Below are positions 18,014-32,170 of a stretch of DNA of 38,403 nt, in pieces (the stretch's first letter is position 1; each line of letters starts with the position of its first letter). The translations under genes were made by a program, and so were the position numbers. Under the pieces are notes generated by a model that worked only from the letters and a program-made list of their open reading frames with translations, was not told the origin of the DNA and made no database searches. The DNA comes from a virus. The stretch lies in the UHGV virus genome UHGV-0824332. One strand, 5' to 3'.

Positions 18014-18618
18014 CAGGACAACCTCGCAATGGTAAACTCGTCAACCGGTGGCAGTGGTTCCTGTGATTCATTCTGGCTATGCGAGCCAGCACTAAGAATC
18101 ACGCGATTGTACATATTGAGGGCAAACGTACCGAGGTCTGCATTCCCAGTCAGCGCCATGTTAATAGCTGCCGCAAGACGCCAGGCCAACGCCTCCATAA
18201 AAATGGCATCAAACATGTTCACATCTGAAACGCGAGAGACATACTTGAGCCATGCCTGCGGCTGGTCTGTGTAGATCAACTTTCCTGTTCCGTTGGTGTC
18301 TGCACCAACTTCGTACTGAACGCGCATTGCTGCTGTTGGATTGCGTACACCAGGAAGCATAATTTCAGTAATGCGCAGACAATCGGACGGGTACTGATAC
18401 GCATATTCCCAGTCAGGCGGTGGATTGCTCGTATCTGCAAGCGCCACGCGTTTGGTAGCAAAGTTCCAGTCAAAATCAGAAAGCACAGCATCACGGCAGG
18501 CCTCAAAGTGCAGCGAACATTCCCCCGCTTCCTTGCTGGCTTCCGTCAGGCTGTTAATGCTGCGGCTATTGCCAATATTGGACAGCGCACGATTGCAGAT
18601 CTCTACTACAGAGGCCAT
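18013..18618 (-). CDS. Tail tubular protein A-like (adaptor)
   Basis: 201 aa, immediately upstream of tubular B-like gene. Confidence 0.55.
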   Translation of the reverse strand: MASVVEICNRALSNIGNSRSINSLTEASKEAGECSLHFEACRDAVLSDFDWNFATKRVALADTSNPPPDWEYAYQYPSDCLRITEIMLPGVRNPTAAMRVQYEVGADTNGTGKLIYTDQPQAWLKYVSRVSDVNMFDAIFMEALAWRLAAAINMALTGNADLGTFALNMYNRVILSAGSHSQNESQEPLPPVDEFTIARLS

Positions 18619-18947
18619 TACTCACCCCCATTGCCGTACAGGGTTTCAGCCGCTGATTTTTCTACATCCCCGGAAACAGGAGCGATCGCCATATCAGTGA
18701 TCTGCAGATCGGCGCTGCGATTAACACCATCGTCAGTTTCTCTGGCAGACAGGCCTCGAATAACAGCTTTTGCAGTTATCATCACTTCTGTTCCGACGCC
18801 CTGAGGTTGCGCCTTCAGCTTATTCAATGTGTCGTTATTAAGAGTGATGCACAGCCCCCACGGGTATTCATCGCGAGTTCTGGTTTCTCCGCTCTCATCC
18901 TGGTAGCTGTCAGTGCCGGTTTTGAGGTTTACGAGTTCCATATACAC
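18618..18947 (-). CDS. Hypothetical small virion-module protein
   Basis: ORF in late operon; probable ATG at 18941. Confidence 0.45.
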   Translation of the reverse strand: MYMELVNLKTGTDSYQDESGETRTRDEYPWGLCITLNNDTLNKLKAQPQGVGTEVMITAKAVIRGLSARETDDGVNRSADLQITDMAIAPVSGDVEKSAAETLYGNGGE

Positions 18948-18991
18948 TCCTGCAATAAAGGGGCCGAAGCCCCTTGTCGGATTCGCGAGGC

Positions 18992-19327
18992 TTACACGCC
19001 TAGTTCTTTACGCTTATCTGCGATCTTCTCGCGGAGCGTTTCGGCTTTAGCGTTATGGTGTGGCTTCTCGTTAAAGAGCAATTCGTACTCTTCACGGAGC
19101 TTATCCAGTTCACCATCATCTGACACATCGTTGATGATTTTGGTGCTGGTTGCTGCCATTGACACCTTTCCTGCAACTTTTGCTTTTGCCTGTCTGGCTG
19201 CATCGTTAACAGGTTCCAGTGCGCTACCAGGCTCACCTTCGTATTCGATTTCTGCCCCCTCCGGCCACAGAGTGTTATGGATATGAGAGAGGCGCAGAAC
19301 GCGGTATCTTGGTTTCTCACCTGACAT
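18992..19327 (-). CDS. Hypothetical small virion-module protein
   Basis: ATG at 19327 preceded by AAGGTG. Confidence 0.5.
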   Translation of the reverse strand: MSGEKPRYRVLRLSHIHNTLWPEGAEIEYEGEPGSALEPVNDAARQAKAKVAGKVSMAATSTKIINDVSDDGELDKLREEYELLFNEKPHHNAKAETLREKIADKRKELGV

Positions 19328-19337
19328 CGATATCACC

Positions 19338-19775
19338 TTAACCAGTTACTTTTGAGCGGATCGGATACGGCGTATTGGCATCAACATCAAGACTGATACC
19401 AGCAGTGAATTCGCCAGCCGTTAGTGGGCCAGTTGCGACGGAGTAGTTAACACGCAGATATCGCTGAACACCGGCAGGCACCTTTGCAGAAACAACTCGT
19501 TTACCTGCTGTCAGGGCGGTCTTTGCCAGTGCACCACTATCATAAATAGTGGTCCATGAGCTGTTATCCTCACTCGTCTGCAACTGGATGTTTACAGTTG
19601 CATCACCGCTTGCTGCGGCGGCTGTGTTAACCAGCGCCCAAAACTCAAGCGGGTAACCCACGCCGATATCACGACGTTTTCCGTCAATTGGACCGAGATC
19701 GATTACGTCAGTAGAAGCCGCGGTATCAGTTACCGCCTGTGCTTCGGAGAACATCAACAGTTTGTCGGTGATCAT
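19338..19775 (-). CDS. Putative head decoration/cement-like protein
   Basis: 145 aa beta-rich protein immediately downstream of major capsid gene. Confidence 0.45.
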   Translation of the reverse strand: MITDKLLMFSEAQAVTDTAASTDVIDLGPIDGKRRDIGVGYPLEFWALVNTAAAASGDATVNIQLQTSEDNSSWTTIYDSGALAKTALTAGKRVVSAKVPAGVQRYLRVNYSVATGPLTAGEFTAGISLDVDANTPYPIRSKVTG

Positions 19776-19826
19776 CTTCTTTCTCCATTAGTGGGTCTGT
19801 TACGACCCACAGGTTAATAACAGGCG

Positions 19827-20819
19827 TTACACCACGCGGGCTTCTGTTTCCAGAATCGCATCAGTTTCACGGATTGGTACACCACGGAATGAAGTCCACC
19901 ACTCGCCTTCTGTCTCTTTTACGCTGATCGCCAGAGATGTTTTCTCCAGAGATTGCAGATCAAGAGCCTGGCCTACAGTGCGGTTCATGTAGAACACCGG
20001 GCGACCCATGCCACGATTTGGAATGCGATGCAGTGCTTTAACCATCAACTTCGCAATATTTGCGGCAGAGGAAGGTTCTGAAAGATTGCTGACATCGATG
20101 TTTGCAATGCGAACAACATAACGCCAGTCACGTAGAGCAAGTCCGTTATCCCATTTGTAATGGGTGCGATAGCCTTCGTACTTGCCGCCATTAGCATCTT
20201 CCAGTGTCACCTGGCCTTTATCTTCCATTTGGATGCCAGCCTTCTGCCCTTTCGGGAAGATGCCATGCACGGTGTTTTCGCCCCACACCACTAACCAGAT
20301 TGAGGTGTTATCTGTACCCGTGCCACCAGCATCAATGATGTTCTGAGCATTACCCGCAGACAGGCTGGAATAGCGGGAGGACAGTCCCATAAACTGCTGA
20401 GGGTTAACGCTGGAATCACCATAAAACAGCGTCTGCGCCATCTGCTGATTCATCGCTTCAATAAATGCTCGGTCTTCAGACAGGCGGAATTCGGCGGTAT
20501 TGCCGTTCAGATCAGCCAGTGACTTATCGACTTCAGCATAGGTTTCCAGCATGCCAACGTAATCGGTGACCTGCACTGTGGTTGATTTGCTTGGCTGTAC
20601 GCCATAGTTCAGCAAACGCCAGGTAGCTGAAGGTAAACCAGAACGAATGGTGGTTCGGTGTCCGGTAGGAAGGTTCCCTTCGACAAAAGGCATATCCTGA
20701 AGGATCGGGTTAGTTTGACCGAGAAGCTCGATAATCTTATCGACTTTCCCGTTTGGATCGACGCGCTTACCCCAGTCAGCCAGCGTTAGCGCAGTTAAGC
20801 CTTTAACAGCCATTGTCAT
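19827..20819 (-). CDS. Major capsid protein
   Basis: 330 aa, downstream of scaffold in conserved order portal-scaffold-capsid. Confidence 0.8.
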   Translation of the reverse strand: MTMAVKGLTALTLADWGKRVDPNGKVDKIIELLGQTNPILQDMPFVEGNLPTGHRTTIRSGLPSATWRLLNYGVQPSKSTTVQVTDYVGMLETYAEVDKSLADLNGNTAEFRLSEDRAFIEAMNQQMAQTLFYGDSSVNPQQFMGLSSRYSSLSAGNAQNIIDAGGTGTDNTSIWLVVWGENTVHGIFPKGQKAGIQMEDKGQVTLEDANGGKYEGYRTHYKWDNGLALRDWRYVVRIANIDVSNLSEPSSAANIAKLMVKALHRIPNRGMGRPVFYMNRTVGQALDLQSLEKTSLAISVKETEGEWWTSFRGVPIRETDAILETEARVV

Positions 20820-20827
20820 TTCCTCTC

Positions 20828-21529
20828 TTATTTGCCATAGAGCACTTCGGCCGCACTACGCTGGCCTTCATTACCACCGGTGACCATGCCATCTTCAGAC
20901 ATCGCCTTTCCGATTTTCACGAACGTTTTGACCAGATCAGGGTGATTACCCAGTCCGGTGGTGTTCAGATATTCTTTGAGTTCAGGTGTCCCGAACTGGT
21001 CAAGCGCACGCTGTGCGGCGCTAAGGTTAGAAATCAACTTGTCGCCACCGATTTCTTTGTCAGCTTTTACATCCGCAGCCCACTGCTCGGTTGTTTTCTG
21101 CCAGGCTTCTGCCTGGCGCTGCTGAACACCTGCCAGAATCTTCGGATAAGCATCAACCAGCTTTTGCGCTTGCTCGTTGGTCAGGTTAAGTTCTCGCGCC
21201 ACCGGCTCGAATTCCTTCAACGCTTCTGTATCCAGCTCTACGCCTTCGGCAGCCTGAAACTCGTACTTCTCAGGCGCCCCCTCTGGTTTATCGCCGTCCT
21301 TTTTTTCATCCTGCTTATCGTTTTCAGGCTTTTTGTCATCAGCAGGTTTATCGCCATCAGCAACAGGTTGTGGCTTATCACCTTCCAGTTGTGATGGATC
21401 ACCAACTGGAGCAGGGTTATCACCTGCAGGCGCTGACGGTTCTGACGCAGCCGGAGCTGCTCCGCCATCAACTGGTTGCTCATTGCAAAGACGGCGATAC
21501 AGCAAACGCTCAAATAAATTCATGATCAC
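20828..21529 (-). CDS. Scaffolding protein
   Basis: 233 aa, acidic Pro/Ala/Asp-rich N-terminal half and helical C-terminus. Confidence 0.7.
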   Translation of the reverse strand: MIMNLFERLLYRRLCNEQPVDGGAAPAASEPSAPAGDNPAPVGDPSQLEGDKPQPVADGDKPADDKKPENDKQDEKKDGDKPEGAPEKYEFQAAEGVELDTEALKEFEPVARELNLTNEQAQKLVDAYPKILAGVQQRQAEAWQKTTEQWAADVKADKEIGGDKLISNLSAAQRALDQFGTPELKEYLNTTGLGNHPDLVKTFVKIGKAMSEDGMVTGGNEGQRSAAEVLYGK

Positions 21530-21822
21530 TCCTGTTCACTGGCCTCTTTGGCCATCTTCAAATACTGTTCAGGGCAATGCGCCATAACGCGCTGAAACAG
21601 TTCCAGCGCCAGATTGCGTTGCCCCTCATTAAATGCCATTGCCATAGCATCCATCGGAGAGATAGCGGAAAACACCCGGCCTTTCTCCAGCACCGACCAG
21701 ACAACGCGACGCCCCTGTTCACTGCTCATGACAAAGCGAATGTCATCAATTTCACGCTGTGCCATGTCACGTTGCTTACGGGCGTTTTCTTCTTTCAGTT
21801 GATCGTCTTCGTAATCTGTCAT
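21526..21822 (-). CDS. Hypothetical protein between portal and scaffold
   Basis: 98 aa, start/stop overlaps with neighbours. Confidence 0.5.
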   Translation of the reverse strand: MTDYEDDQLKEENARKQRDMAQREIDDIRFVMSSEQGRRVVWSVLEKGRVFSAISPMDAMAMAFNEGQRNLALELFQRVMAHCPEQYLKMAKEASEQE

Positions 21823-23498
21823 TGTGATTGCCCACCCTGACCACTAAATGCATTCGCCATAGCTGACAAAACACTCGGATCCGAAGTTTTAGCTTCGCTT
21901 AGCGTCTTGGCACCCTGTGCCGCCGCCATCCCCATCGCCATCATTTGTTGCTGCTGTTGTTGCTGTGCCCGTTGCTGGCGAGCCTGCTCAACCTGTTCCT
22001 GCGGAACAATGACGGTTGGAGACACTCCGGACATATCAGCGAATGCATCGATCGCCTGATCAACGTTGAGTTTGTCGAGAGCTTCTGGTTTCGCTTGCGC
22101 AAGTTGACCAATGAAGTTGACCGTGGATGCCAGACTGGACAGGCCGATAGACTTCTGCGCCTGAGCCATGACGGAAATGTATTCGACCTTCAGGGGCATA
22201 CCTTCCATCGCGTCAGGTGGTGGCGGCAGCATGTTTTTACGCACCATCATCGAGAAAGCGCGGTCAATGAGAGGATTAAGACATTCGTCGTTCAGACGCT
22301 CCAGAACCGGCCCCAACATCAGAAGTTTTTCTTCTTTCATTTCGATCACCGCTTCAACAGGCATCGAGCGGGTATTGATGTTCTGCAACATCATGAACAG
22401 ATCGACAAAGTAGGCGCTGTTAATGATTTGACGAGTGTCCTGAATGTCTGCCACCAAATCTGCTGTACTGGGGTTAACCAGATAAGCAGGCCTGAAACTA
22501 TCCTGACCAGTAATCTGATCGATATACGTGATGTCGCCAGGAAGAAGGGAGGCACGCTGATTCTTGAGGGAAGTCGGAGCAATCATCGGCGGATTGGTGG
22601 CTTTATCAATCAACTGCGACTTGCGCTTCTGGAGAAGCTGCAATGCCTTAACAGGTCCAAGCGCCAGCATACCCGGGCATGATGATCCATAAACATCTTC
22701 GCCGTTAACTTCCCAGCGCGGAGCCATAATTGGAAACTCATCGAATCCGGACTCACGCAACAACTTGTCGTTATCGCCACCAACCTCGTAATAAACCGAT
22801 TTGAATGGCTTGTTCTTGCTATCCAGCTTCGATGTATCGCGGTCAATGTTCGGGTAAACCGAATGCATCACTTCAATCCACTTCTCGTAGGTGCCGCTTT
22901 CCCACATGCTTTTTACGGATTCGCTGACGTTATTTAGCCCGAACTCCTGAACAAGCTGACGAACAGTCATAGAGAACTTGCGAAAACAGGTGTCCACACT
23001 GCCACGAGGTGAGTTAGCTAGGTAGTAACTGCCTATCGGGAATGGCATTGTGCGAATGATGTCCTCATCATCCTCCAGTACCGCCATTGCACCGGTGCTG
23101 TATGTGCCGAGGCTTCCATATAACTGCGGCAGCGACTGATAGAGATTCGACTTATTGAACATATCGTTCATGCGGTTCTGCACGGCCTCAAGCCACAACT
23201 TAACAGGGCCATAATCCATCATTTCAGGATCTGGCGTAGCCAGGCGAAACCACGGACGCGCGGGGCTTGTGATGCCTGACATCATGCCGCTGGCGAGAGT
23301 GCGCGCCGCCATAGTCCCGGTCGAATCAATAATGCGTGTATTGCGTCGATCGTTACGGTTGACCTCAGAAGTCAGAAAGCGGGAACCACGCGGGTTGATG
23401 TAATCACTCAACTCGCGCCAGTGCGGCTCGAACGACTGACGCTCGCTTTCAAGTTGTGCGAACTGTTTGTTCAATCGCTCTTTAGTTGTTTCCGCCAT
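21819..23498 (-). CDS. Portal (head-to-tail connector) protein
   Basis: 559 aa with Gln-rich C-terminal tail; follows terminase module. Confidence 0.85.
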   Translation of the reverse strand: MAETTKERLNKQFAQLESERQSFEPHWRELSDYINPRGSRFLTSEVNRNDRRNTRIIDSTGTMAARTLASGMMSGITSPARPWFRLATPDPEMMDYGPVKLWLEAVQNRMNDMFNKSNLYQSLPQLYGSLGTYSTGAMAVLEDDEDIIRTMPFPIGSYYLANSPRGSVDTCFRKFSMTVRQLVQEFGLNNVSESVKSMWESGTYEKWIEVMHSVYPNIDRDTSKLDSKNKPFKSVYYEVGGDNDKLLRESGFDEFPIMAPRWEVNGEDVYGSSCPGMLALGPVKALQLLQKRKSQLIDKATNPPMIAPTSLKNQRASLLPGDITYIDQITGQDSFRPAYLVNPSTADLVADIQDTRQIINSAYFVDLFMMLQNINTRSMPVEAVIEMKEEKLLMLGPVLERLNDECLNPLIDRAFSMMVRKNMLPPPPDAMEGMPLKVEYISVMAQAQKSIGLSSLASTVNFIGQLAQAKPEALDKLNVDQAIDAFADMSGVSPTVIVPQEQVEQARQQRAQQQQQQQMMAMGMAAAQGAKTLSEAKTSDPSVLSAMANAFSGQGGQSQ

Positions 23499-23512
23499 TT
23501 CAATGACTCCGG

Positions 23513-23719
23513 TTACTGACCAAGTAGCGTTTTACCGCTGGTATTAGCGGTTGATGTGTCGCCCTGAGAACCGGTAAGCAGCGTAGAACTACGACCAGCA
23601 GCAGCGCGACGGCGACGTGTTTCTTCGTCGCGGGCATCAACAACGGCGGCATCCTGCTCCTGTGGTGCTGCCTGAACTTCTGGTGTTGCAGGCACTGATG
23701 GTGAGCTACCCATGCACAT
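23513..23719 (-). CDS. Hypothetical small protein upstream of portal
   Basis: 68 aa; ATG preceded by GGAG. Confidence 0.4.
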   Translation of the reverse strand: MCMGSSPSVPATPEVQAAPQEQDAAVVDARDEETRRRRAAAGRSSTLLTGSQGDTSTANTSGKTLLGQ

Positions 23720-23809
23720 ATCAATGACTCCGTACGCAATTAAATTATTACCAATTTAACCACATATGATTTATTTATCGTAGATAATTGACATTTAACG
23801 CACGAGTTA

Positions 23810-23824
23810 TTACCTTTCAGGTAG
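23810..23824. promoter_or_regulatory. Operator-like site C, TTACC-TTTCA-GGTAG, with -35-like TTGACA at 23788..23793
   Basis: Family palindrome (one half-site mismatch) in divergent intergenic region between late genes and tRNA moron. Confidence 0.4.
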
Positions 23825-23952
23825 GCAAAGAGTTCATTCCGGTTATTAACCTGACTGGCTTGTCGTTAAATTGAACAGGTGGAGTGAGCTTTTATTTTGA
23901 GCAGTACGGCGTATGGCACATGCGCCGATAGCGGTCTGGATACGTTTAAGGG

Positions 23953-24078
23953 GTACCCTCCCTTGCTCGGGCAAACGAACCAGGTAGCCGGAATGTGCAA
24001 GTCGAGCGGTTTTATTCCGCGCACGGGGATTCACCATCCCGGCGATTCGGTGTGACGCCTCGGAAGAGACGAGGGTAC
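23953..24078 (+). ncRNA. Candidate structured RNA or tRNA leader upstream of tRNA-Arg
   Basis: 8-bp closing helix GTACCCTC/GAGGGTAC enclosing about 110 nt with nested stems CGGAAT/ATTCCG and GGGAT/ATCCC; no convincing ORF. Confidence 0.25.
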
Positions 24079-24146
24079 AACGATGAGAGCATTTATGGAG
24101 CCGCGACAAAGTGTGGCGCCTTAACAGGCTAAGTGCTCTCAGCGTT

Positions 24147-24223
24147 GTGGCATTAGCTCAGTTGGACAGAGCAACCGCCTTCTAAGCGGTTGGTTGCAGG
24201 TTCGAATCCTGCATGCCACGCCA
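24147..24223 (+). tRNA. tRNA-Arg, anticodon UCU
   Basis: Acceptor stem GTGGCAT/ATGCCAC, D-arm GCTC..GAGC, anticodon loop CTTCTAA, T-arm GCAGG-TTCGAAT-CCTGC, encoded CCA. Confidence 0.85.
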
Positions 24224-24266
24224 GAATCACGCCTAAGGACCGTGATGCCAGAAGTTCCAGGTGCTT

Positions 24267-24309
24267 GGCGGTGACAGTTTCCCTTGAAGGACTATCACCG
24301 CCCTTTTTA
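24267..24309 (+). terminator. Rho-independent terminator after tRNA
   Basis: 8-bp stem GGCGGTGA/TCACCGCC then CTTTTT. Confidence 0.55.
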
Positions 24310-24386
24310 CAGCAGGACGCCATTGCGATGACTTCATGCTGTAAACCCGTACAGCCACGGAAGGCATAACTCATTGCTTCCAGTTC

Positions 24387-24410
24387 GCCCGGTTCGACGG
24401 GCATTTTTTT
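24387..24410 (+). terminator. Hairpin plus U-tract immediately upstream of the 24422 gene
   Basis: GCCCG-GTTCGA-CGGGC then ATTTTTTT, followed by RBS AAGGTGAG and ATG. Confidence 0.55.
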
Positions 24411-24421
24411 AAGGTGAGATT

Positions 24422-24778
24422 ATGAACGACCAGCAAATCGAAAAAGAAATCGTTGAGAAAGGCAAAACCGCTCCGCGAGTTACGCCTCAATATATCGAAA
24501 GCATCATTCTTGAAGAGCATTTCTTTACTGCTTATGACGGCATTCGTGCTGCCAATATGGGCGTTGGCGATACGTGGACAGCGCATAAATCTACAGACCT
24601 CCTTACTTTCTGCGTACTGGTGCTGAAGAATGGCTTCACCGTCACCGGAGAGAGCGCATGTGCAAGCCCGGAAAACTTTGATGCAGAAATTGGTCGGAAG
24701 ATTGCCAGGCAGAATGCTGTAAACAAAATCTGGATGCTTGAAGGTTACTTGCTGAAGCAGAAGTTAAGCGAGCAATAA
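24422..24778 (+). CDS. Conserved small phage protein (possibly N4 Gp49 / Sf6 gp66 family), function unknown
   Basis: 118 aa, strong RBS; family assignment from memory only. Confidence 0.5.
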   Translation: MNDQQIEKEIVEKGKTAPRVTPQYIESIILEEHFFTAYDGIRAANMGVGDTWTAHKSTDLLTFCVLVLKNGFTVTGESACASPENFDAEIGRKIARQNAVNKIWMLEGYLLKQKLSEQ

Positions 24779-24782
24779 CACC

Positions 24783-24794
24783 GTGACATGTCAC
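24783..24794. other. Perfect 12-bp palindrome GTGACATGTCAC (copy 1)
   Basis: Identical palindrome recurs at 27048..27059; both lie just beyond stop codons flanking the terminase module. Confidence 0.45.
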
Positions 24795-24798
24795 AAAC

Positions 24799-24825
24799 AG
24801 CCAGCCTATGAGCTGGCTTTGTTTT
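24799..24825 (+). terminator. Hairpin plus T-run between gp49-like gene and terminase large subunit stop
   Basis: AGCCAGC-CTATG-GCTGGCT then TTGTTTT. Confidence 0.45.
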
Positions 24826-24868
24826 ATCCTCACCAGAGGATATCAACGACATTATCCCCACCAGCGGA

Positions 24869-26344
24869 TTAAGCATAGGGATCGTAATCTGTAATGGCCT
24901 TGCCTTGCTGGTTCTGCTGACCTGGAATTCGCAGACGCTTCGACACAGGGAAAGCAAACGTCAGCAATAGCGCATCGCCTTTACCCGGCGAACGCCCAAG
25001 CCGCTCCTTGATATCTTCCTTCGGTTCGATAACGATTTTACCGTCCACTCGAACTTTGTACTCTGCCGCCGACAGGTCGTCCGCTGTTTCCTGGTCATCA
25101 AGCATCCCGCCCAGCCTCAGCCATGTCTTGCATGAGTTGAACATCTCCCCACGCTTGTTGAGCATCTGCGGGTCAGTAGACGCGCCACCGAACGGAACAA
25201 GTTGCCATGTGCGCCCCCAACCGTCACCGATTGACTTCAGACCGGTACCGTAACCAAAGTCGATGAACACTGCGTCAGCCTGATACAGGTCTTCAAAATC
25301 AGCGATACGCTTCGCCATAATCAGATCGTCGGTAGTCTTGTTGCCAGTCCACAGCACCTTACTGTGTAGCCCCTGCCGCAGGTATATCACCGCGTCATCA
25401 ACGCCTGAATATGCCGGGTCAACACCGATTATCACCGGAGCATGTGCAACCTGCGCAGCGGTTACCACCCGTTTCATTGCCTCGTCAGTAAGACCGGTAG
25501 GGATAAACTGCAATTCAGATGCATCAGGGAATATGCCGCGCACACGGATTTTAACGAAGTCGCTGTCTTCCCCGTAGTCATCAACCCATTTCTGCAACTG
25601 CTGTTTGTTAGTGCCTTCCACCGTCCGGCTGTCAATCTGCGCACACTTCCAGCGGTGTTTGTACTTGCGGAAACATTCACGGAAACGCCCGGTGTTACGC
25701 GTCGGGTTCCCGAACGCCACCCAGATGATTTCGGTGTCTTCGTCCGTCAGCGCACCCTCTGCTACCTCCCACACCAGATCGGCAATGTTCGACGCTTCAT
25801 CGAATACCACGATGATGCGTTTGCGCTCGTTGTGTAGTCCGGCGAATGCCTCAGTGTTGTGCTCAGACCAGGGTATTGCGTCAGCCCGCCATCGCTTGTC
25901 GTGCCCTGGGTCATTGCTGTACATCGCGGTAGCGGTACAGGTAAACCAGTCTTTCGTGATAGCAAGGTTCGACCACTTGATAATTTCCGGCCAGGTCTTC
26001 GTTCGTAGCTGGTTGTCGGTGTTGGCGGTCACCACGACCTTACAATCCTCGCAAGTGGACATGCCCCAGTTGATCAGCATTGAGATGAATGCGGATTTAC
26101 CAATACCGTGACCCGAAGCACGTGCCAGCATAAGCGGCTGATAGCGCGTCTCTGGATTCTGCAGGTGATCACGTATCTCTCGGAACGCATCAGCCTGCCA
26201 CTGACGTGGGCCGGTAGCATGTGCCAGTTCAGTCCCCTCTTCCCCCCACGGGAACGCATAGAGGGCATAGCCAAGCGGATCGTGAGTGAACCCTGCAATA
26301 TCCTCGATCAACTGCTCTTCAGGAGATAACGCTGTATCTGTCAC
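24869..26344 (-). CDS. Terminase large subunit
   Basis: 491 aa with ATPase-like and nuclease-like regions; stop overlaps small-subunit gene. Confidence 0.9.
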   Translation of the reverse strand: MTDTALSPEEQLIEDIAGFTHDPLGYALYAFPWGEEGTELAHATGPRQWQADAFREIRDHLQNPETRYQPLMLARASGHGIGKSAFISMLINWGMSTCEDCKVVVTANTDNQLRTKTWPEIIKWSNLAITKDWFTCTATAMYSNDPGHDKRWRADAIPWSEHNTEAFAGLHNERKRIIVVFDEASNIADLVWEVAEGALTDEDTEIIWVAFGNPTRNTGRFRECFRKYKHRWKCAQIDSRTVEGTNKQQLQKWVDDYGEDSDFVKIRVRGIFPDASELQFIPTGLTDEAMKRVVTAAQVAHAPVIIGVDPAYSGVDDAVIYLRQGLHSKVLWTGNKTTDDLIMAKRIADFEDLYQADAVFIDFGYGTGLKSIGDGWGRTWQLVPFGGASTDPQMLNKRGEMFNSCKTWLRLGGMLDDQETADDLSAAEYKVRVDGKIVIEPKEDIKERLGRSPGKGDALLLTFAFPVSKRLRIPGQQNQQGKAITDYDPYA

Positions 26345-26937
26345 TGATTACCATCCTGACGTTCTTTGAGTCGCTTCCTGGCTGCTGCTATGCGATCAGC
26401 AATTGTCACATTCACATTAACATCCAGACGTTCTTTGAACGCGTTGACATCAACATGCTTACCAATCAGCTCAAGGTTCTTCACCTTGTCAGGCCATTTA
26501 ATTTTTTTGAGGATTGTCTCTATCGAATCCTCGTTCATGTTCATGATGGTCGATGACAGATCAAAGCCACTAAGCGTAGTGCGCCAGATTTTCGGCCACT
26601 CACGGATTGGTTTAAGGCTCCCATCGTCGTTGAGGATGTCGATCACGTCCATCTGGTCGATCTCCACCAGGCGCATGAGAACGTAATCAGCACTGACGCG
26701 CATTCGTTTGTTGCGCTCCTCCATCAACTCGGCAATCCGTTTTTGAATGCGTTCATCGCGCATCATGACACTGGCTTTAACTGCCGCTGTATTTGGGGAG
26801 AATCCTGCGTTAATCGCTGCCTGAGTCTGGTTTTCAGGCGTTTTGATGTATGACTGGCAATAAGCCTCCTGCATTGCTGTTAGTGGCTTAAATTGCGTTG
26901 ATTTGCGTTTATAGGTTTTAGGTTCAGCAGGCATCAT
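26341..26937 (-). CDS. Terminase small subunit
   Basis: Probable ATG at 26937 (MMPAEPKTYKRK...) preceded by GGTGG; helix-turn-helix-like N-terminus; directly upstream of large subunit. Confidence 0.7.
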   Translation of the reverse strand: MMPAEPKTYKRKSTQFKPLTAMQEAYCQSYIKTPENQTQAAINAGFSPNTAAVKASVMMRDERIQKRIAELMEERNKRMRVSADYVLMRLVEIDQMDVIDILNDDGSLKPIREWPKIWRTTLSGFDLSSTIMNMNEDSIETILKKIKWPDKVKNLELIGKHVDVNAFKERLDVNVNVTIADRIAAARKRLKERQDGNQ

Positions 26938-26954
26938 AACCACCGTGGTAATAG

Positions 26955-26969
26955 TTACCGTTGTGGTAA
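26955..26969. promoter_or_regulatory. Operator site M, TTACC-GTTGT-GGTAA, with overlapping extra half-sites, 18 bp upstream of terminase start
   Basis: Perfect family palindrome; adjacent GGTAATAGTTACC and GGTAATAGTACC half-site arrangements. Confidence 0.45.
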
Positions 26970-26979
26970 TAGTACCATG

Positions 26980-27006
26980 CAAAATAAAGCCGCCATAGTT
27001 GGCGGC
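26980..27006 (-). terminator. Rho-independent terminator just upstream of the packaging/late genes
   Basis: GCCGCC-ATAGTT-GGCGGC followed on the minus strand by TTTATTTTG. Confidence 0.55.
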
Positions 27007-27047
27007 AGTATTCAAAACCCATCAAATTCATCATGCATAATCTACTC

Positions 27048-27059
27048 GTGACATGTCAC
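27048..27059. other. Perfect 12-bp palindrome GTGACATGTCAC (copy 2)
   Basis: Overlaps the stop codon of the 27056..27397 gene. Confidence 0.45.
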
Positions 27060-27397
27060 ACTATTAATTTCGTTTCATGCCAGCCTTTAGTCACCCAGCA
27101 TTGCGAGTCACCATTACACGGGCATGAATTAACTGGAACTCTCTCGCCGCACTTACCGCAACGTTTTCTGCTGATCGATTTTATACGCCCGCGCACCCGG
27201 GCATCATCCTGGCGGATCAGCAGCGCGATGTACTCGGCCATTTCATAGGGATCTCGACCAGGGCGCCGGGCGGCGCAGTTCCGCTCCAGCATTTCAATTT
27301 CCTGAGCATCAAGCACAATCTCCAGCTTACGTACACCGGATTCAGCTTGTCTGGCTCTCTGAGCGGCTTTGCGCTCTGCTGCTGATTTAGCCATCAA
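27056..27397 (-). CDS. Putative DNA-binding protein with C-terminal zinc ribbon (possible late-gene regulator)
   Basis: 113 aa; basic N-terminus, C-terminal CGKCGERVPVNSCPCNGDSQC; last gene before the terminator and terminase. Confidence 0.45.
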   Translation of the reverse strand: MMAKSAAERKAAQRARQAESGVRKLEIVLDAQEIEMLERNCAARRPGRDPYEMAEYIALLIRQDDARVRGRIKSISRKRCGKCGERVPVNSCPCNGDSQCWVTKGWHETKLIV

Positions 27398-27668
27398 TAT
27401 TCACCTTTATCGCGTACACCTTTACCGGTTTATCGCCGAAGTGCGGATGTGTGATTGTCTTGATTTCATACCCTTCATACGGGACGTCAATTCTTCGACT
27501 GAAGTCGTCGCGCTTCGGATATCCCTTTGTGATAATCAGGCGGTCATACTTACGGTTAACGAGGCGCTTTTTCCAGTAGTCATTACACAGGCGATACTCT
27601 TCCGTTTTCTCTCCTCGAATCATGGCATCGAAGTATTCACCTTTAACGGCAAGTTGCAGGTTAGCCAC
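27387..27668 (-). CDS. ASCH (PUA-like) domain protein
   Basis: 93 aa with GEKTEEYR motif matching the ASCH GxKxxExR signature. Confidence 0.5.
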   Translation of the reverse strand: MANLQLAVKGEYFDAMIRGEKTEEYRLCNDYWKKRLVNRKYDRLIITKGYPKRDDFSRRIDVPYEGYEIKTITHPHFGDKPVKVYAIKVNIDG

Positions 27669-28920
27669 GGTTAACCTCCTGCGGCGGTTCTGGTAGCGGC
27701 ATCCAGTGGGTTACATGTGCCCCGTAATGATTCCAGAACGACGCAACTGGCGCACTGTCTCCATCAGGGACAACCCAGTAATCGTGATGAACTTTATTAT
27801 TAAGCCCATCAAACACCAGATACTCTTTACAACTTCCGGGAATGTTCTCAGGCATTCGCTCACTACAGCTTATCCAACCATCCGGAGTTGCCGGAACTTG
27901 TGGAATGGCTGTCTGCTCTCGAACGTCATTAGGCGCTATAGGTTCTGCTGCCAACTGACTGGCATATTTGTTAATGGTAACGATAAGCTCTTGCTCAGCC
28001 TCATCCAGACAATCACCGATACCTCGCCTGTCACCGTCAAAATCATCGAAATCGGCACGAATCCTGGCAACCTTCAGGATTGCGGACAACACCTCACTAG
28101 GAATTGCCGGATAGTTGGTTGACGTTTCCGCGATTTCCCGAAAATTATTGGTTGACGAATTCTTGTTTTCCCGAAAGTTTCCGGACTGAAGCATGGCGGC
28201 GCGGATTGCAGCGATGACTTCAGAAACTTTGTATGCCATTACCGTTTGGTAATCATCGTGAAAATCTGTTCGATGAAGCATGCTGCTACGTTCCGGGAGC
28301 GATATTTCCCGAGCATCCAGTTCCTTAACGCGTTCCTCCAGTTCGTAGACCCTGCATTGTTCTCTATCATCAATCAGATATAACCCAAGACATTCGCTTT
28401 CTACCCAACCGCCAAAATCATGATCGTAACGCTCACATGAAAACTCACCGTCACCGTCCTTTGTTGGAATGGTGTAACTATCTAATGGGCCACCATATGT
28501 CGGCACATTCCCCAATGTTGGATGCTCAATCCACATGAAAAATGCACGTCCGGTTATTGGGCAAATATCTGGCCGCCATTGGTTACGAACAGCCTTGGTT
28601 TCGGATAATTCTTCAGCGTGTTGTTTTACTTCCTCAAGCTCAACTCTCAGCTTCCCTACCGTTAGCGCAATATCCTCGTTCTCCTGATCGCGGCTTTTGA
28701 TGTATTGCAGGTTTCTTTCCCGTTCATCCAGCAGTGCCAGCACGGTTTCTGGTCCGGTCAGAAATTTGAAGGCGTTGAGCGCATCAATATCCACACCGTA
28801 ATCTTTAAGTTCCTGTTCACTTAACAAGTCATCATCAGCTGGCAACATTAACAGGCGTTCCATTGCTGGAATTGCACGTTCCGCCACCTCACGCAGTGCC
28901 TGGTAATTAATTTCGCTCAC
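27661..28920 (-). CDS. DUF551-containing phage protein
   Basis: 419 aa; C-terminal SERMPENIPG...HWMPLPEPP matches the DUF551 pattern common in lambdoid prophages. Confidence 0.65.
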   Translation of the reverse strand: MSEINYQALREVAERAIPAMERLLMLPADDDLLSEQELKDYGVDIDALNAFKFLTGPETVLALLDERERNLQYIKSRDQENEDIALTVGKLRVELEEVKQHAEELSETKAVRNQWRPDICPITGRAFFMWIEHPTLGNVPTYGGPLDSYTIPTKDGDGEFSCERYDHDFGGWVESECLGLYLIDDREQCRVYELEERVKELDAREISLPERSSMLHRTDFHDDYQTVMAYKVSEVIAAIRAAMLQSGNFRENKNSSTNNFREIAETSTNYPAIPSEVLSAILKVARIRADFDDFDGDRRGIGDCLDEAEQELIVTINKYASQLAAEPIAPNDVREQTAIPQVPATPDGWISCSERMPENIPGSCKEYLVFDGLNNKVHHDYWVVPDGDSAPVASFWNHYGAHVTHWMPLPEPPQEVNRG

Positions 28921-29435
28921 TGGTTGCCTCCTTTGCGAAGTTGGGCAGCAAAGTCAACTAACCACTCAGTCATTTCAACCTTCCCTACCAGGTCTGAACC
29001 AGGGTACATACAGCAATCACTCTGCGCCGCTTTGAAATCCTTATACTCATATTCTTGGGCCACCAGATTTTTTGCAGCTTCTATAGCAGCATCCACCCCC
29101 TGCGCCCGTACTTCAGCCAGAAAAGCATCGGTGGCTGGCATATTTCCTGTTGCCTTCATGGCCTCCAAAATAACCAGAACGCCATCTCGCCCAACCTCCT
29201 CAGCGATAACCTCGGTGTTGTCGCCAACAACATCGCAGAATGCCTGAACTGCCTTACGAGCCAGTTCATTCTCCGCCGCCAGCGCATTAGCACGCACCAG
29301 TTGCACTTCCAGTTGCGTTGCCAAATCGCTGATCAGCTTTGCCACACTACGCATATCAACGGCACCACATTCTGCTTTCAGTTCCGAAGCCATCTCATGC
29401 CCGGCGGCAACTAACCCTTTGATATTACTTTCCAT
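28917..29435 (-). CDS. Ead/Ea22-like early protein
   Basis: 172 aa acidic helical protein typical of lambdoid early-region Ea22-type genes. Confidence 0.55.
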   Translation of the reverse strand: MESNIKGLVAAGHEMASELKAECGAVDMRSVAKLISDLATQLEVQLVRANALAAENELARKAVQAFCDVVGDNTEVIAEEVGRDGVLVILEAMKATGNMPATDAFLAEVRAQGVDAAIEAAKNLVAQEYEYKDFKAAQSDCCMYPGSDLVGKVEMTEWLVDFAAQLRKGGNQ

Positions 29436-29496
29436 CTTTACCCTCGCTTATCCACATAACTTATTGATTACATTGATAACTAAAAAGATCGTCGAT

Positions 29497-30105
29497 TCAT
29501 GCCGATCTATTTTTCATCAGTGATTCATAAAACTTTTGCCACTTATGCCGACCGAAATTAGCCTTCGAGTTACAGCTCGAACAAAGGCAAATAAGGTTCT
29601 CCTGACGACAGTCTTGCTTGTCGTAATTGATGTGATGAGTTGTTAGCCTTTTGTCTGTTCCATCACAACCTGGGTTCTGACAAGTAAAACCATCTCGCTC
29701 AATAACCCTCTTGCTCGTTTCTCGGAAATCCCACGGATACGGCAATCTCGATAATCCACCAGACCAGTTTGGATTTCCTTCCCCCTTCATCAGAGAAGAA
29801 CGCATTATGTTGGAACACTGTTTCGAGCAGCATTTATGACGCTTCTCATGACTCAAGAAAACGGAGAACGAAGATCCGCATACGCAGCATATTTTTAATA
29901 CTCGCTTTAGTTCCCGATTTACCGTCTTGCCTCGCTGTGAAATTCCTACACACTGAAGTGAGCAGAACCTTGAAGATGAGTTGGCTCGCTTAACCTGATA
30001 TTGCCTGCCACATACGGAGCAAACCTTTTCGATTTTCCCACCCTTCCAATTCGGGTTTTTATCACCGGATACAATCAATCCCGCAGCATTGGGCTTCTCG
30101 CTCAT
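29497..30105 (-). CDS. HNH endonuclease
   Basis: Repeated NPNW(K/S)GG motifs with Cys pairs, C-terminal HHINYDKQD...NLICLCSSCNSKAN HNH core. Confidence 0.8.
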   Translation of the reverse strand: MSEKPNAAGLIVSGDKNPNWKGGKIEKVCSVCGRQYQVKRANSSSRFCSLQCVGISQRGKTVNRELKRVLKICCVCGSSFSVFLSHEKRHKCCSKQCSNIMRSSLMKGEGNPNWSGGLSRLPYPWDFRETSKRVIERDGFTCQNPGCDGTDKRLTTHHINYDKQDCRQENLICLCSSCNSKANFGRHKWQKFYESLMKNRSA

Positions 30106-30455
30106 AGTTCCTCAACCTCCCATCCACCACCGAGCTTTTTAGGTTTTGGATAAGCAACCTGAAAGACAAACGGATAGCTGTCTGCCGCAACCTTCATCTT
30201 GACTCTCGCATCGTCAGTAAAGACTGACTTACTTCCCTTAACGTCCACCATCACCAACTGCCCGTCAGCCAACATCACGGCAAAATCTACAGTCAGGAAG
30301 CAGTTGTCAGCTAACCGCAGCTTGATACCCTCGAATCGATACCAGGCGATTTCCCCTGCACGTTTACGCAGCTCAAGGTGCTGGCAATACGCAGATTCTG
30401 TTTTGTTCATCTGGCCTGTTTTGAGTCGACCAAGAGCCTGTATCTGTTTTCTCAT
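30102..30455 (-). CDS. DUF1064 family protein
   Basis: 117 aa; composition and length typical of DUF1064. Confidence 0.6.
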   Translation of the reverse strand: MRKQIQALGRLKTGQMNKTESAYCQHLELRKRAGEIAWYRFEGIKLRLADNCFLTVDFAVMLADGQLVMVDVKGSKSVFTDDARVKMKVAADSYPFVFQVAYPKPKKLGGGWEVEEL

Positions 30456-30458
30456 GAT

Positions 30459-30473
30459 TTACCCCTCAGGTAA
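30459..30473. promoter_or_regulatory. Operator site D, TTACC-CCTCA-GGTAA, 4 bp upstream of the DUF1064 start codon
   Basis: Perfect family palindrome overlapping the RBS region. Confidence 0.5.
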
Positions 30474-30520
30474 TTAAAAACCACATAAGACACGAAATCA
30501 ATAGAGTTTAGAATATTTTA

Positions 30521-30535
30521 TTACCCGACAGGTAA
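30521..30535. promoter_or_regulatory. Operator site E, TTACC-CGACA-GGTAA
   Basis: Perfect family palindrome, 62 bp from site D, between P-like stop and DUF1064 start. Confidence 0.5.
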
Positions 30536-30572
30536 TTATCAAGACGTAAAAAAATGCGCTATCGCGCTGGTA

Positions 30573-31373
30573 TTACTTGATAAATCCTGCCGCCTTTCCC
30601 CGCCTGTATTCCTCCATCAGCCACTGCGCCGGTGTTATTCCCCCCAGGGTAGCGGCGTTAGGCATACACCCGAAACTTCGCCCTGGTGGATGGTAAACGT
30701 CTCTCCCTGTGTCCGGAGGCGTACTCATGGGTTCTGGCTTTGCCTGTATGCTGATCACCGGATCGGGTATCTGCTGTCCGGAAGCCACCTTTTTCGCCCA
30801 ATCATCAAGCAGCCTGCGCGCATGTTTCTCAACCTCAATCTCGCTAAGCTGGCGCTGATACATTGCACGGCGGGTATCACATACGACCCAGTACATAACC
30901 GGATGCCGCCACGGGAATCTTTCGGGACCACCAGGATATAAACTTTTTTCCTTGCTGTACCGGTGAAACTCCGCCATCACATCGTCAATGGTGACGCCAA
31001 GAACCATCTTGCTGTCTTTACACCACTTGATAAATTGCCCTGGCGACGGCCAGAACGGAGATTCACTGGCGCGGGCGTGGCGCATACCAGCAGAAACCTG
31101 TTCACGGGTTCGGATCCCCCCTTCGGCAAACGCAGCAATCCACTGCTGTTTTGCAGCAACTTCCTGCTCTGGCGTCTTCAGGTTGGTTACCACTGCCGCC
31201 GGAAACAGTTGTTTCAGCTGTTTGAAAAGGGCATCAACAAGCCTCTCTGCTGACATGTTCACCACATTGTCATTGTTGACGTACTGATGCTCATAACCTG
31301 ACATGCGAGAAAGGGCTTCTCCGTCATGGTTTTGTATCGCGGTAAAAACGTTGTTCACAAGAAATCCTCCCAC
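30573..31373 (-). CDS. Replication protein P-like (DnaB helicase loader)
   Basis: Matches lambda P (REQVSAGMRHARASESPFWPSPGQFIKWC versus lambda EQVNAGMRVARRQNRPFLPSPGQFVAWC); start uncertain (GTG at 31373 or ATG at 31304). Confidence 0.8.
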   Translation of the reverse strand: MGGFLVNNVFTAIQNHDGEALSRMSGYEHQYVNNDNVVNMSAERLVDALFKQLKQLFPAAVVTNLKTPEQEVAAKQQWIAAFAEGGIRTREQVSAGMRHARASESPFWPSPGQFIKWCKDSKMVLGVTIDDVMAEFHRYSKEKSLYPGGPERFPWRHPVMYWVVCDTRRAMYQRQLSEIEVEKHARRLLDDWAKKVASGQQIPDPVISIQAKPEPMSTPPDTGRDVYHPPGRSFGCMPNAATLGGITPAQWLMEEYRRGKAAGFIK

Positions 31374-32170
31374 GCTTCAGGGCTGTTCCAGTGCGGAACG
31401 TTGTTATCAGGTAATGTTGATTGCTTCTGTCTGCTAATCTGCAGCCGCCTTGCCAGCTTCTGCTCCCACTGTGCCTGATGGTATGCCTTACCCTCAGCCA
31501 TCCAGTAAATTCTGAACTCTGCAAGTTCCTGTGCCGTTGGCAGACTGTCCAGGTAGATCCCCTGCAATGAGCTTTTCCGAAGAAAGTCATCTGATGGCTG
31601 CCATTGTTCATGCATGACAAATTTGCCTAATTGCCCTGGCCCACCAGGAGGAACAAAGTTATTCATCACGGCGTTGTTTGCGCCGGGGTCATGATGCACA
31701 GAATCCCCGTTTTTTGTCCTGCTCTCCCTCTCTTGGTTAAATGACTGGTTATATGACTGGTTCTGGATCCCGTTTTTGGGATCATTCAACATCCCGTTTT
31801 TGGGATCATTCAACATCCCGTTTTTGGGTATATTCCCGTTTTCGGTAACATTACCGTTTTCGGGTTCATTGCCCCCCTCCCGGTTGCCTTTAATATTCCC
31901 GTTTTTGGTTATATTAAGAGAGAAAACCCGCACTCTTTTTGTCGCTCCCTTTCTCTCTCCGGTATCTGAAATAAGCCCCATTTTCATGAGCGATATAAGC
32001 CCGGCCTGCACGGTTTTTTTATTCAGGCAAGTGTCTTTAACGAGGCGTTCTATGCTGGGGTAGCAGAGGTTATATTCATCGGCTCTGTCAGCCATCGAGA
32101 GCAGTATGAGCTTTAATGATGAGCTACCTGGATCTGTCTCCCAGGCCCAATCTGTTGCATGTCTGCTCAT
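31355..32170 (-). CDS. Replication initiator O-like (N-terminal winged HTH, iteron-encoded central repeats, O-type C-terminal domain)
   Basis: 271 aa; central Asn/Gly/Pro repeats encoded by DNA iterons; overlaps P-like gene. Confidence 0.8.
   Translation of the reverse strand: MSRHATDWAWETDPGSSSLKLILLSMADRADEYNLCYPSIERLVKDTCLNKKTVQAGLISLMKMGLISDTGERKGATKRVRVFSLNITKNGNIKGNREGGNEPENGNVTENGNIPKNGMLNDPKNGMLNDPKNGIQNQSYNQSFNQERESRTKNGDSVHHDPGANNAVMNNFVPPGGPGQLGKFVMHEQWQPSDDFLRKSSLQGIYLDSLPTAQELAEFRIYWMAEGKAYHQAQWEQKLARRLQISRQKQSTLPDNNVPHWNSPEAWEDFL
31767..31913. repeat. Replication origin iterons inside the O-like gene (6 copies of ATCCCGTTTTTGGGAT-like repeat)
   Basis: Direct repeats at about 31767, 31791, 31815, 31833, 31851 and 31897 with 24- and 18-bp spacing. 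Confidence 0.75.

Follow-up and report, generated by a model that had tools for sequence, protein, structure and literature searches.

A conserved two-pseudoknot RNA next to a phage tRNA-Arg gene is a candidate accessory early RNA of temperate phages

Among the RNAs described from phages, two kinds invite comparison with the one reported here. The put RNAs of phage HK022 (putL and putR), RNA-only processive antiterminators of lambdoid phages, are about 70 nt long and consist of two stem-loops and a short triplex (PMC9378689). ROOL and GOLLD are phage-borne, highly structured RNAs of unknown function that often lie beside tRNA genes (PMC12286853, PMC5737381). Further points of comparison are the eps-associated RNA (EAR) of Bacillus, tRNA-like signals for 3′ processing of the MALAT1-mascRNA type, tRNA punctuation and the rare-codon tRNAs of phages. 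Here, we describe a conserved structured RNA of about 245 nt, M1+Pf, at positions 23906-24148 of the virus genome UHGV-0824332 (38,403 nt; the whole stretch that was analysed is called the window below). It lies directly upstream of a tRNA-Arg(UCU) gene, between the terminase and portal genes of an epsilon15/phiV10-like phage of the Uetakevirus type. The element is a phage structured non-coding RNA, and the possibility that its function is new in kind is a real one. The explanation that we favour, with a probability of about 0.5 for all of its parts taken together, is that window positions 23788-24826 form a non-coding-first transcription unit under the control of the phage repressor and that M1+Pf is a stable, folded early RNA that acts in trans, is accessory to the phage and is not a cis-acting antiterminator.

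In the lambdoid phages that carry it, the element occupies the same place as the put RNAs, just past the early promoter PL and before terminators (PMC9378689), and a position downstream of an early promoter and upstream of terminators was found both in phage mEp460 and in the window, with its own promoter and the terminators T1 and T2. However, the HK022 putL and putR regions share with the element only a short, ambiguous GGCG..UC..GG.UGA string, the element combines a core of about 170 nt, containing two pseudoknots, with a hairpin of 70 nt, and neither the terminator nor the downstream genes are lost in relatives that lack it. With ROOL and GOLLD it has in common the location in phages and, in 46 of 152 element loci, a directly adjacent tRNA, but covariance models of these classes gave no hit at E-values up to 10, and the element is much smaller (245 nt against about 580-800 nt) and found in Enterobacteriaceae. 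It belongs to neither put nor ROOL/GOLLD. The Bacillus EAR is likewise a structured, pseudoknotted RNA inside an operon, and the copy upstream of the ban gene of phage P1 is in a comparable position; unlike EAR, the element has no Rfam match and comes from a different host phylum, and the likeness with regard to antitermination is positional only.

The structure was written down from a MAFFT alignment, with element position 1 at window position 23904. Near-invariant blocks in the alignments are separated by hairpins of varying length, and the architecture comprises five covarying helices, two H-type pseudoknots that each pair a hairpin loop with downstream bases, and long invariant single-stranded stretches:

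23906-24074, + strand: M1, the core of the conserved RNA, supported by covariation, alignments and a covariance model
23907-23911/23923-23927, + strand: helix Pa (element 4-8/20-24)
23916-23921/23993-23998, + strand: pseudoknot PK1, the Pa loop pairing downstream (element 13-18/90-95)
23931-23939/23980-23988, + strand: helix Pb, enclosing a variable hairpin (element 28-36/77-85)
about 24004-24023, + strand: variable hairpin Pc (element about 101-120)
24026-24029/24037-24040, + strand: helix Pd (element 123-126/134-137)
24032-24035/24049-24052, + strand: pseudoknot PK2, the Pd loop pairing downstream (element 129-132/146-149)
24058-24062/24070-24074, + strand: helix Pe with the loop GAAGAGA (element 155-159/167-171)
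24077-24093/24132-24148, + strand: Pf, the long closing hairpin (24077-24148) with a variable insert (element 174-190/229-245)

The evidence that carries this structure is the pattern of changes between homologues, which fall into 48 clusters at 90% identity. In the alignment of 21 diverse sequences, 97.0% of the 987 pair cells form standard pairs, compared with 28-45% after a shift of the 3′ partners by 1-3 columns, 16 pairs are changed on both sides, and none of 500 shuffles matched any of the observed pairing measures. Pf, the last two bases of which are tRNA nt 1-2, has 16 pairs, five of them changed on both sides, with 96.7% of the cells paired, and is also recovered by single-sequence folding; in PK2, one pair shows a compensatory change, from C-G to A-U, which occurs in three sequences that represent two contexts. 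Single-sequence fold z-scores were uninformative (-2.3 on the + strand and -2.7 on the - strand), so the evidence for a structured RNA is comparative. The sequence-only reading had drawn helices in a region of 200 bp upstream of the tRNA; the covariation found in homologues identifies this region as a structured non-coding RNA, for which 200 bp was too short. G-U pairs are abundant, including an invariant U-G pair in Pb, and would be A-C mismatches on the opposite strand; therefore, the RNA is read from the + strand.

These same changes speak against there being no RNA at all but a degraded protein-coding gene or a site acting at the DNA level, such as an origin, a recombination site or a cluster of binding sites. 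Open reading frames (ORFs) of 45-87 aa do overlap the element in the window, and an opposite-strand hypothetical protein, mEp460_037, is annotated across the structured RNA in a public record (L004 2443-2811; L numbers denote fetched loci). Yet the ORFs are not conserved between contexts, the indels in the variable hairpins have lengths that are not multiples of three, and the compensatory pair changes together with the strand-specific G-U pairs refute this explanation, to which we give practically no credence. Both mEp460_037 and PhiV10p04, the hypothetical protein that another public record places on the opposite strand across the tRNA (L001 3454-3705), are probably spurious ORFs.

The most conserved stretch of the element is a 19-mer, GGTAGCCGGAATGTGCAAG, at window positions 23983-24001. 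Since fetching the loci by this 19-mer inflates its apparent invariance, the comparison was repeated on metagenome contigs with the independent anchor TGGCACATG-N6-7-AGCGGTC, which gave 120 hits, 38 of them true elements according to nhmmer and the others chance matches. The 19-mer was exact in 34 of these 38 elements, and the 3′ strand of PK1 was unchanged in all 38. Two other descriptions of the structure were tried and dropped. A nested double pseudoknot does not describe the topology, which is that of two separate H-type pseudoknots, and the resemblance of the Pf 3′ strand in some loci (UGCUCUUU..GUUGUGG) to the boxA/boxC of rrn operons is limited to a conserved UGCKCU, which is base-paired, while the rest covaries. 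Hairpins of the Pf type (ACAAC..GAGAGCA...UGCUCUC..GUUGUGG) are found not only as Pf itself but also before the core and, in lambdoid phages, after T1; repeat sites are at about 23826-23900 in the window and at 2932-3020 in L004, with partial downstream hits in L064, L074, L141, L132 and L152. Some loci have a second Pe-Pf module, and L026 has two full elements.

The element is widely distributed. A sensitive blastn search with 23780-24150 against phage records matched 23906-24150 to unannotated DNA of unrelated temperate phages at 72-83% identity, namely the lambdoid mEp460, cdtI and Stx2c-converting phages, P1, P7, D6 and SJ46, phages of Klebsiella and Enterobacter and one phage recorded on Stenotrophomonas. 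Scanning for the exact 19-mer returned at least 120 IMG/VR contigs and 24 species-representative genomes, nearly all from Enterobacteriaceae. The covariance model built from the 21-sequence alignment scored 201 bits at window positions 23904-24150, without a second copy in the window, and 118-234 bits in 151 of the 153 fetched loci; the two others are a remnant in epsilon15 (35 bits) and an Oscillospiraceae contig without a hit, where the 19-mer match was due to chance. Full-scoring copies were also present in L150, a 1753-bp contig of a metagenome-assembled genome labelled Bacillota, and in L007, the phage recorded on Stenotrophomonas; these non-enterobacterial records may be due to mis-binning or to a wrong host label, or the host range may be wider. 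By blastn, 1840 of the 5426 complete E. coli genomes contain the element, at 1920 chromosomal and 554 plasmid places, and in 40 E. coli records no annotated feature lay under the matches listed. All contexts examined were of phage origin.

The tRNA-Arg was already known and is annotated in relatives, but the RNA was found neither in Rfam 15 nor in the searchable literature. A scan of the window at the Rfam gathering thresholds returned C4, isrK and tRNA only, the same scan of 18 related loci returned nothing near the element, and permissive scans (E up to 10) of 23600-24500 and of the mEp460 copy gave nothing relevant besides the tRNA and a weak match to DicF. The latter (RF00039) is a resemblance of T1 at 24256-24303 (+ strand) that scored 14.7 bits against a gathering threshold of 48, and no DicF hit was obtained in the 18 related loci. 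Transfer-messenger RNA was discarded, as ARAGORN found none, and so were Y-RNA, hepatitis delta virus-like ribozymes, RNase P RNA and group I introns, for which there was no Rfam hit. Full-text searches with sequence motifs and descriptions found no such RNA described, although the element may be an anonymous entry among the 10,006 candidate viral RNAs of a catalogue from 2023.

Upstream of the RNA, three predicted features precede the core:

23788-23824, + strand: predicted promoter, with the -35 element TTGACA (23788-23793), a 17-nt spacer and the -10 element TACCTT (23811-23816)
23810-23824, + strand: putative operator TTACCTTTCAGGTAG, a one-mismatch copy of TTACC-N5-GGTAA that overlaps the promoter from -10 to +1
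23826-23900, + strand: M0, an optional upstream hairpin and degenerate Pf-type copy, predicted in the single-sequence fold

The sequence-only reading had noticed the TTGACA and an operator-like site, and both were borne out. Across Uetakevirus-type loci the -35 element, the spacer length, the -10 element and the palindrome are kept while the spacer sequence varies, and the palindrome is one of a family with more copies in the window than expected: at up to two mismatches TTACC-N5-GGTAA has 38 matches against 11.5 expected, a count that none of 100 shuffles reached. Besides the one-mismatch copy at 23810-23824 there are 10 perfect copies, among them those at 5234, 5615, 6662, 26955, 30459, 30521, 32852, 33564 and 33626, and one-mismatch copies lie at 201, 2135, 23810, 26937, 32467 and 32804. 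The perfect copies cluster at regulatory regions, those at 5234 and 5615 being just upstream of the isrK/C4 immunity RNAs. This pattern suggests that TTACC-N5-GGTAA is the operator of the main phage repressor, with promoter activity and repressor binding as predictions. An operator over -10/+1 would keep the unit off in lysogens and turn it on early in lytic growth. The family is scattered over the genome in the manner of the C1 operators of P1, and two copies lie inside the 5′ end of terS.

Between operator and core, M0 aligns with GCGCGC...GGAGTGCGCTTTCAGGTGTG in L006, L043, L141 and L134 and corresponds to the feature labelled 'RNaseIII' in the epsilon15 record; it is absent from L067, L146 and L149, where the RNA begins about 15-25 nt past the operator. 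Depending on the presence of M0, the distance from operator to RNA in Uetakevirus-type loci is 15-100 nt. The order in mEp460 is a gene for a CI repressor of the S24-helix-turn-helix (HTH) type, a terminator, two OL operators of the OR type (TTGCATATCTCGCAA and TTGCATAATGCGCAA), a PL-like promoter and the RNA, which lies about 40 nt after PL; about 180 nt after the RNA there is a terminator of -21 kcal/mol, followed by the early-left genes. The first of these encode an unknown 120-aa protein, a DUF2303 protein and an HD-domain protein, and a sister group of the mEp460-type lambdoid loci has a different unknown protein and a ParB-HTH protein instead. mEp460 stands for the SfV/CPS-53-like lambdoid phages; in these and in Stx2c phages the RNA would make up the first transcribed bases after PL. 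P1-like phages have the core only (Pa-Pe), located in the ban operon, which C1 controls, at a distance of 14-15 nt from the preceding trnI and of about 90 nt from ban, and in the Stenotrophomonas-recorded phage and its relatives the RNA is downstream of the gene for a small HTH repressor. Taken together, promoter and operator predictions place the element at the 5′ end, or close to it, of transcripts that are early and under repressor control, in several groups of temperate phages that are not related to each other. The P1 record further annotates a 'dicF-like region' (L003 269-370) where the ban operon begins; the RNA core lies in this same operon.

Downstream of the tRNA the unit continues with terminators and a cargo gene:

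24267-24308, + strand: T1, an intrinsic terminator with the hairpin GGCGGUGA...UCACCGCC (-18.8 kcal/mol) and the U-run UUUUU
24387-24410, + strand: T2, an intrinsic terminator found by terminator scan, 12 nt before the gp49 ATG
24422-24778, + strand: cargo gene of the Gp49 family (PF13876 Phage_gp49_66, Pfam 118.7 bits; PHROG 322, unknown function)
24799-24826, + strand: T3, a terminator found by terminator scan that closes the unit before the convergent terL and is annotated as a terminator in the phiV10 record

A homologue of T1 (UUGGCGG...CCGCCCUUUUUAC) follows the hairpin M4 in lambdoid and Uetakevirus loci, and most representatives have strong intrinsic terminators, often in tandem, 150-300 nt downstream of the RNA. 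The same junction of T2, Shine-Dalgarno (SD) sequence and ATG (window 24387-24424) precedes different cargo genes in L043 and L072. The cargo is variable or absent in related loci; in L067 and L103 only terminators lie between the RNA and the convergent terL, and the unit can thus stand alone. The tRNA had been described as bracketed by terminators, which holds on its downstream side (T1-T3), but nothing convincing was found upstream. It had also been called a moron, a label favoured by the promoter and terminators of its own and rendered doubtful by an operator on -10/+1, which points to repression in lysogens.

This arrangement is also what a processive antiterminator acting in cis, like HK022 put or Bacillus EAR, would lead one to expect: the nascent RNA would bind the polymerase and read through T1, T2 and later terminators, and the cargo (gp49, the lambdoid early-left operon or ban of P1) would be expressed only from this promoter. 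The T2 U-run ends 12 nt before the gp49 ATG, so that transcription of gp49 must pass both T1 and T2; in lambdoid phages the RNA is in the nutL/putL position (cI, terminator, OL/PL, RNA, the -21 kcal/mol terminator, first gene), no N-like protein was seen among the first early-left genes, most representatives have the tandem strong terminators just described, and the position in the middle of an operon in P1 is EAR-like. Relatives without the core bear directly on this proposal. In Lys8385Vzw the PL transcript would start directly at the tRNA-like module, without M1 and Pf, and T1 and all downstream genes are intact. In SfV the protein gene orf33 replaces M1; T1 and the downstream genes are kept, as are the tRNA-like module and a hairpin resembling Pf. 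The covariance model gave no hit there. In epsilon15 a deletion joins Pa/Pb to the 3′ half of T1, and T2, the SD sequence and the gp49-like gene remain. Since all three keep their downstream genes, expression of these genes does not depend on the core in these relatives. Furthermore, L067 and L103 have no gene to read into, only the convergent terL, the cro side of the fetched lambdoid loci, covered over about 1.5-5 kb, showed no second copy that could serve the right operon, and the RNA, three times the size of put, has no convincing similarity to putL or putR. We therefore consider antitermination in cis unlikely. Because such natural variants without the core are viable, the core is a dispensable accessory module that is exchanged horizontally.

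Directly 3′ of the RNA lies a slot that is filled differently from locus to locus, and in the window it holds the tRNA, followed by M4:

24147-24223, + strand: tRNA-Arg, anticodon UCU, with encoded CCA (ARAGORN; Rfam tRNA 73.2 bits against a gathering threshold of 29)
24226-24246, + strand: M4, a conserved hairpin, AUCACG-CCUAAGGAC-CGUGAU (AUCACGCCUUAGGACCGUGAU), directly after the tRNA

Among 152 loci, 28 have tRNA-Arg(TCT) at an identical junction, where the element end overlaps tRNA nt 1-2, 18 have tRNA-Ile2(CAT) just upstream of the RNA, and 106 have no adjacent tRNA. In the tRNA-less loci the slot is usually taken by a tRNA-like module, and in L007-type loci it is empty. This module consists of an acceptor-like closing helix (GUGGUG...CACCAC), a D-arm-like hairpin (GCGCAGGCUGAUGCGC), a variable middle part and a T-arm-like hairpin, which covaries (GCCGG/CCGGC, GCUGG/CCAGC and GUCGG/CCGAC) and in L139 has a canonical T-loop, GGUUCGACUCC; neither ARAGORN nor Rfam called a tRNA on these modules. 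M4 is present in all locus types, and in tRNA-less loci it follows the tRNA-like module or Pf directly. As only 28 of 152 loci carry tRNA-Arg and tRNA-like modules take the same slot elsewhere, what stays constant is the RNA, with the tRNA as exchangeable cargo, which reverses the emphasis that the sequence-only reading had placed on the tRNA.

That reading had also suggested a processed tRNA leader. A pre-tRNA leader or a stabiliser of the 5′ end, without a function of its own, would be in keeping with the overlap of 2-4 nt with the tRNA in the window, with the position 14-15 nt after trnI in P1-like phages and with the location at the 5′ end of early transcripts. Its distribution largely refutes it, with no adjacent tRNA in 106 of 152 loci, and the near-invariant 19-mer, the two pseudoknots and the compensatory changes exceed what a leader or a protective 5′ hairpin needs; such a minimal role is very improbable. 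Processing at the tRNA may nevertheless matter for the RNA. RNase P processes transcripts at tRNA 5′ ends, which is the basis of the comparison with the MALAT1-mascRNA type, where, as here, a tRNA or tRNA-like fold is directly 3′ of a structured RNA. By analogy, the fold would let RNase P define the 3′ end of the upstream RNA, and the junction is identical in 28 of 28 tRNA-bearing loci; in contrast to the mascRNA type, some loci (L007 type) have no tRNA-like module at all.

The exchangeable slot is informative, too, for a leader that senses a ligand, a tRNA or a protein, that is, a riboswitch or attenuator with M1 as the sensor, in which the 3′ strand of Pf would switch partners and thereby set termination at T1/T2. 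As is typical of aptamers, the RNA has two pseudoknots and long unpaired stretches that do not vary; terminators lie downstream, and in tRNA-less loci GUUGU can pair either with ACAAC at the base of Pf or with the downstream CACCACAAC that closes the tRNA-like module. However, the window has a real tRNA where the alternative partner would be, so that no such switch exists there; no link was found between the alternative pairing and the T1 stem, and the distance from M1 to T1 ranges from about 70 to >300 nt, with an intervening module that is exchangeable or absent. P1 has the core without Pf or a terminator, and no Rfam riboswitch was matched. A sensing leader is accordingly improbable.

The tRNA-Arg itself was confirmed as a complete gene with an encoded CCA end, on which ARAGORN, the Rfam score and the sequence end ...CCACGCCA agree. 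It is the only tRNA that ARAGORN found in the window (anticodon tct at position 35). Its acceptor stem is GTGGCAT/ATGCCAC, followed by the discriminator G and CCA, and its D-loop shows AGTTGGACAG, with A20 present; a cloverleaf above the threshold, anticodon UCU, A20 and the 3′ CCA together place it in RF00005. A20 and C35 are arginine identity elements of tRNA. The gene is annotated in several near-identical RefSeq prophage and related phage records. It is divergent from the chromosomal tRNA-Arg, as had been proposed (84.5% identity over nt 7-77); the chromosomal gene is present in 5426 of 5426 complete E. coli genomes and the phage-type copy in about 510 records. AGA and AGG make up 22.6% of the Arg codons in the window ORFs (7.9 and 5.4 per 1000 codons, respectively), and they are frequent in tail and early genes (ORFs in 2814-18013 and 27056-32170) and nearly absent from head and packaging genes (18013-27015). 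The suggested supplementation of AGA/AGG decoding fits this share of codons, and most plausibly the tRNA supplies AGA decoding, possibly also AGG, for the AGA/AGG-rich tail and early genes; a bypass of host anticodon nucleases, the other role suggested for it, would be a further possibility. The codon supply resembles the rare-codon tRNAs of other phages (tRNA-Asn/Thr/Ile of P1, argN and argO of Stx phages); different from these, the tRNA-Arg here is exchangeable cargo within a larger non-coding RNA unit that is under an operator.

In the explanation that we favour, the repressor would leave the operator upon infection or induction, and RNA polymerase would then transcribe M0, M1, Pf, the tRNA, M4 and T1. 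By analogy with other tRNA-containing transcripts, a cut by RNase P at the tRNA 5′ end would mature the tRNA and give the structured RNA a defined 3′ end, ...CAGCGUU. Most transcripts would end at T1 or T2, and a minority would read through into gp49. While the tRNA would supply AGA (possibly AGG) decoding, the structured RNA would act in trans at the very onset of lytic growth by binding a conserved partner, which may be a small ligand or a macromolecule of host or phage. Several points weigh against a discrete, trans-acting RNA gene. No target or ligand can be named for M1+Pf, and searches of the literature found no record of a transcript, of processing or of stability of this RNA. A location just after early promoters and before strong terminators is equally expected of a cis-acting antiterminator. 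In P1, the RNA core forms part of an mRNA and no terminator separates it from ban, which a discrete RNA gene would not lead one to expect. Within the structure, both strands of PK1 are invariant, without any compensatory change and with one U-G variant and one mismatched sequence; PK1 is a plausible rather than a proven pairing.

The unit interrupts genes of the opposite orientation, and the region is 91-98% identical to phiV10, TL-2011b, O157 typing phages and many E. coli prophages:

26341-27015, - strand: TerS (PF03592)
24869-26344, - strand: TerL
23513-23719, - strand: gp3-like ORF, 68 aa
21819-23498, - strand: portal (PF12236)

With the tRNA-Arg on the + strand and all four of these genes on the - strand, the placement of the tRNA inside the packaging/head operon on the opposite strand stands, as does the small phage gene that had been predicted after it, the Gp49-family gene at 24422-24778. 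Elsewhere in the window, isrK at 5666-5742 (74.7 bits) is followed in tandem by the C4 antisense RNA at 5761-5848 (78.6 bits), both on the + strand, a P1-type immI module inside a Uetakevirus.

A bolder and rather speculative version of trans action, which we hold only tentatively, is that M1 is the first RNA-only early effector to be traded like a gene cassette, one that would neutralise or hijack a conserved host component without the need for translation. A compact double-pseudoknot RNA in the first bases of the PL transcript would be made within seconds of infection, and its candidate targets would include a defence nuclease, an immune signalling nucleotide, a tRNA-modifying or tRNA-cleaving enzyme and RNA polymerase, with the neighbouring tRNA or tRNA-like slot serving as a processing handle.

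E. coli and P1 are well studied, and yet a 245-nt RNA with two pseudoknots lies unannotated in about a third of the complete E. coli genomes; it is also found just upstream of ban in P1 and right where the early-left transcript of Stx2c-converting and SfV-like phages begins. What had been read as a tRNA moron is cargo in a larger RNA gene that is predicted to be under repressor control. The element is a candidate for a new class of functional RNA, for which nature provides controls in the form of phages with or without the RNA and of a slot that holds a tRNA, a tRNA-like module or nothing. Whether it proves to be a trans-acting early RNA, an antiterminator or a sensor, it would bear on the way in which lytic growth begins in temperate phages of pathogenic E. 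coli.

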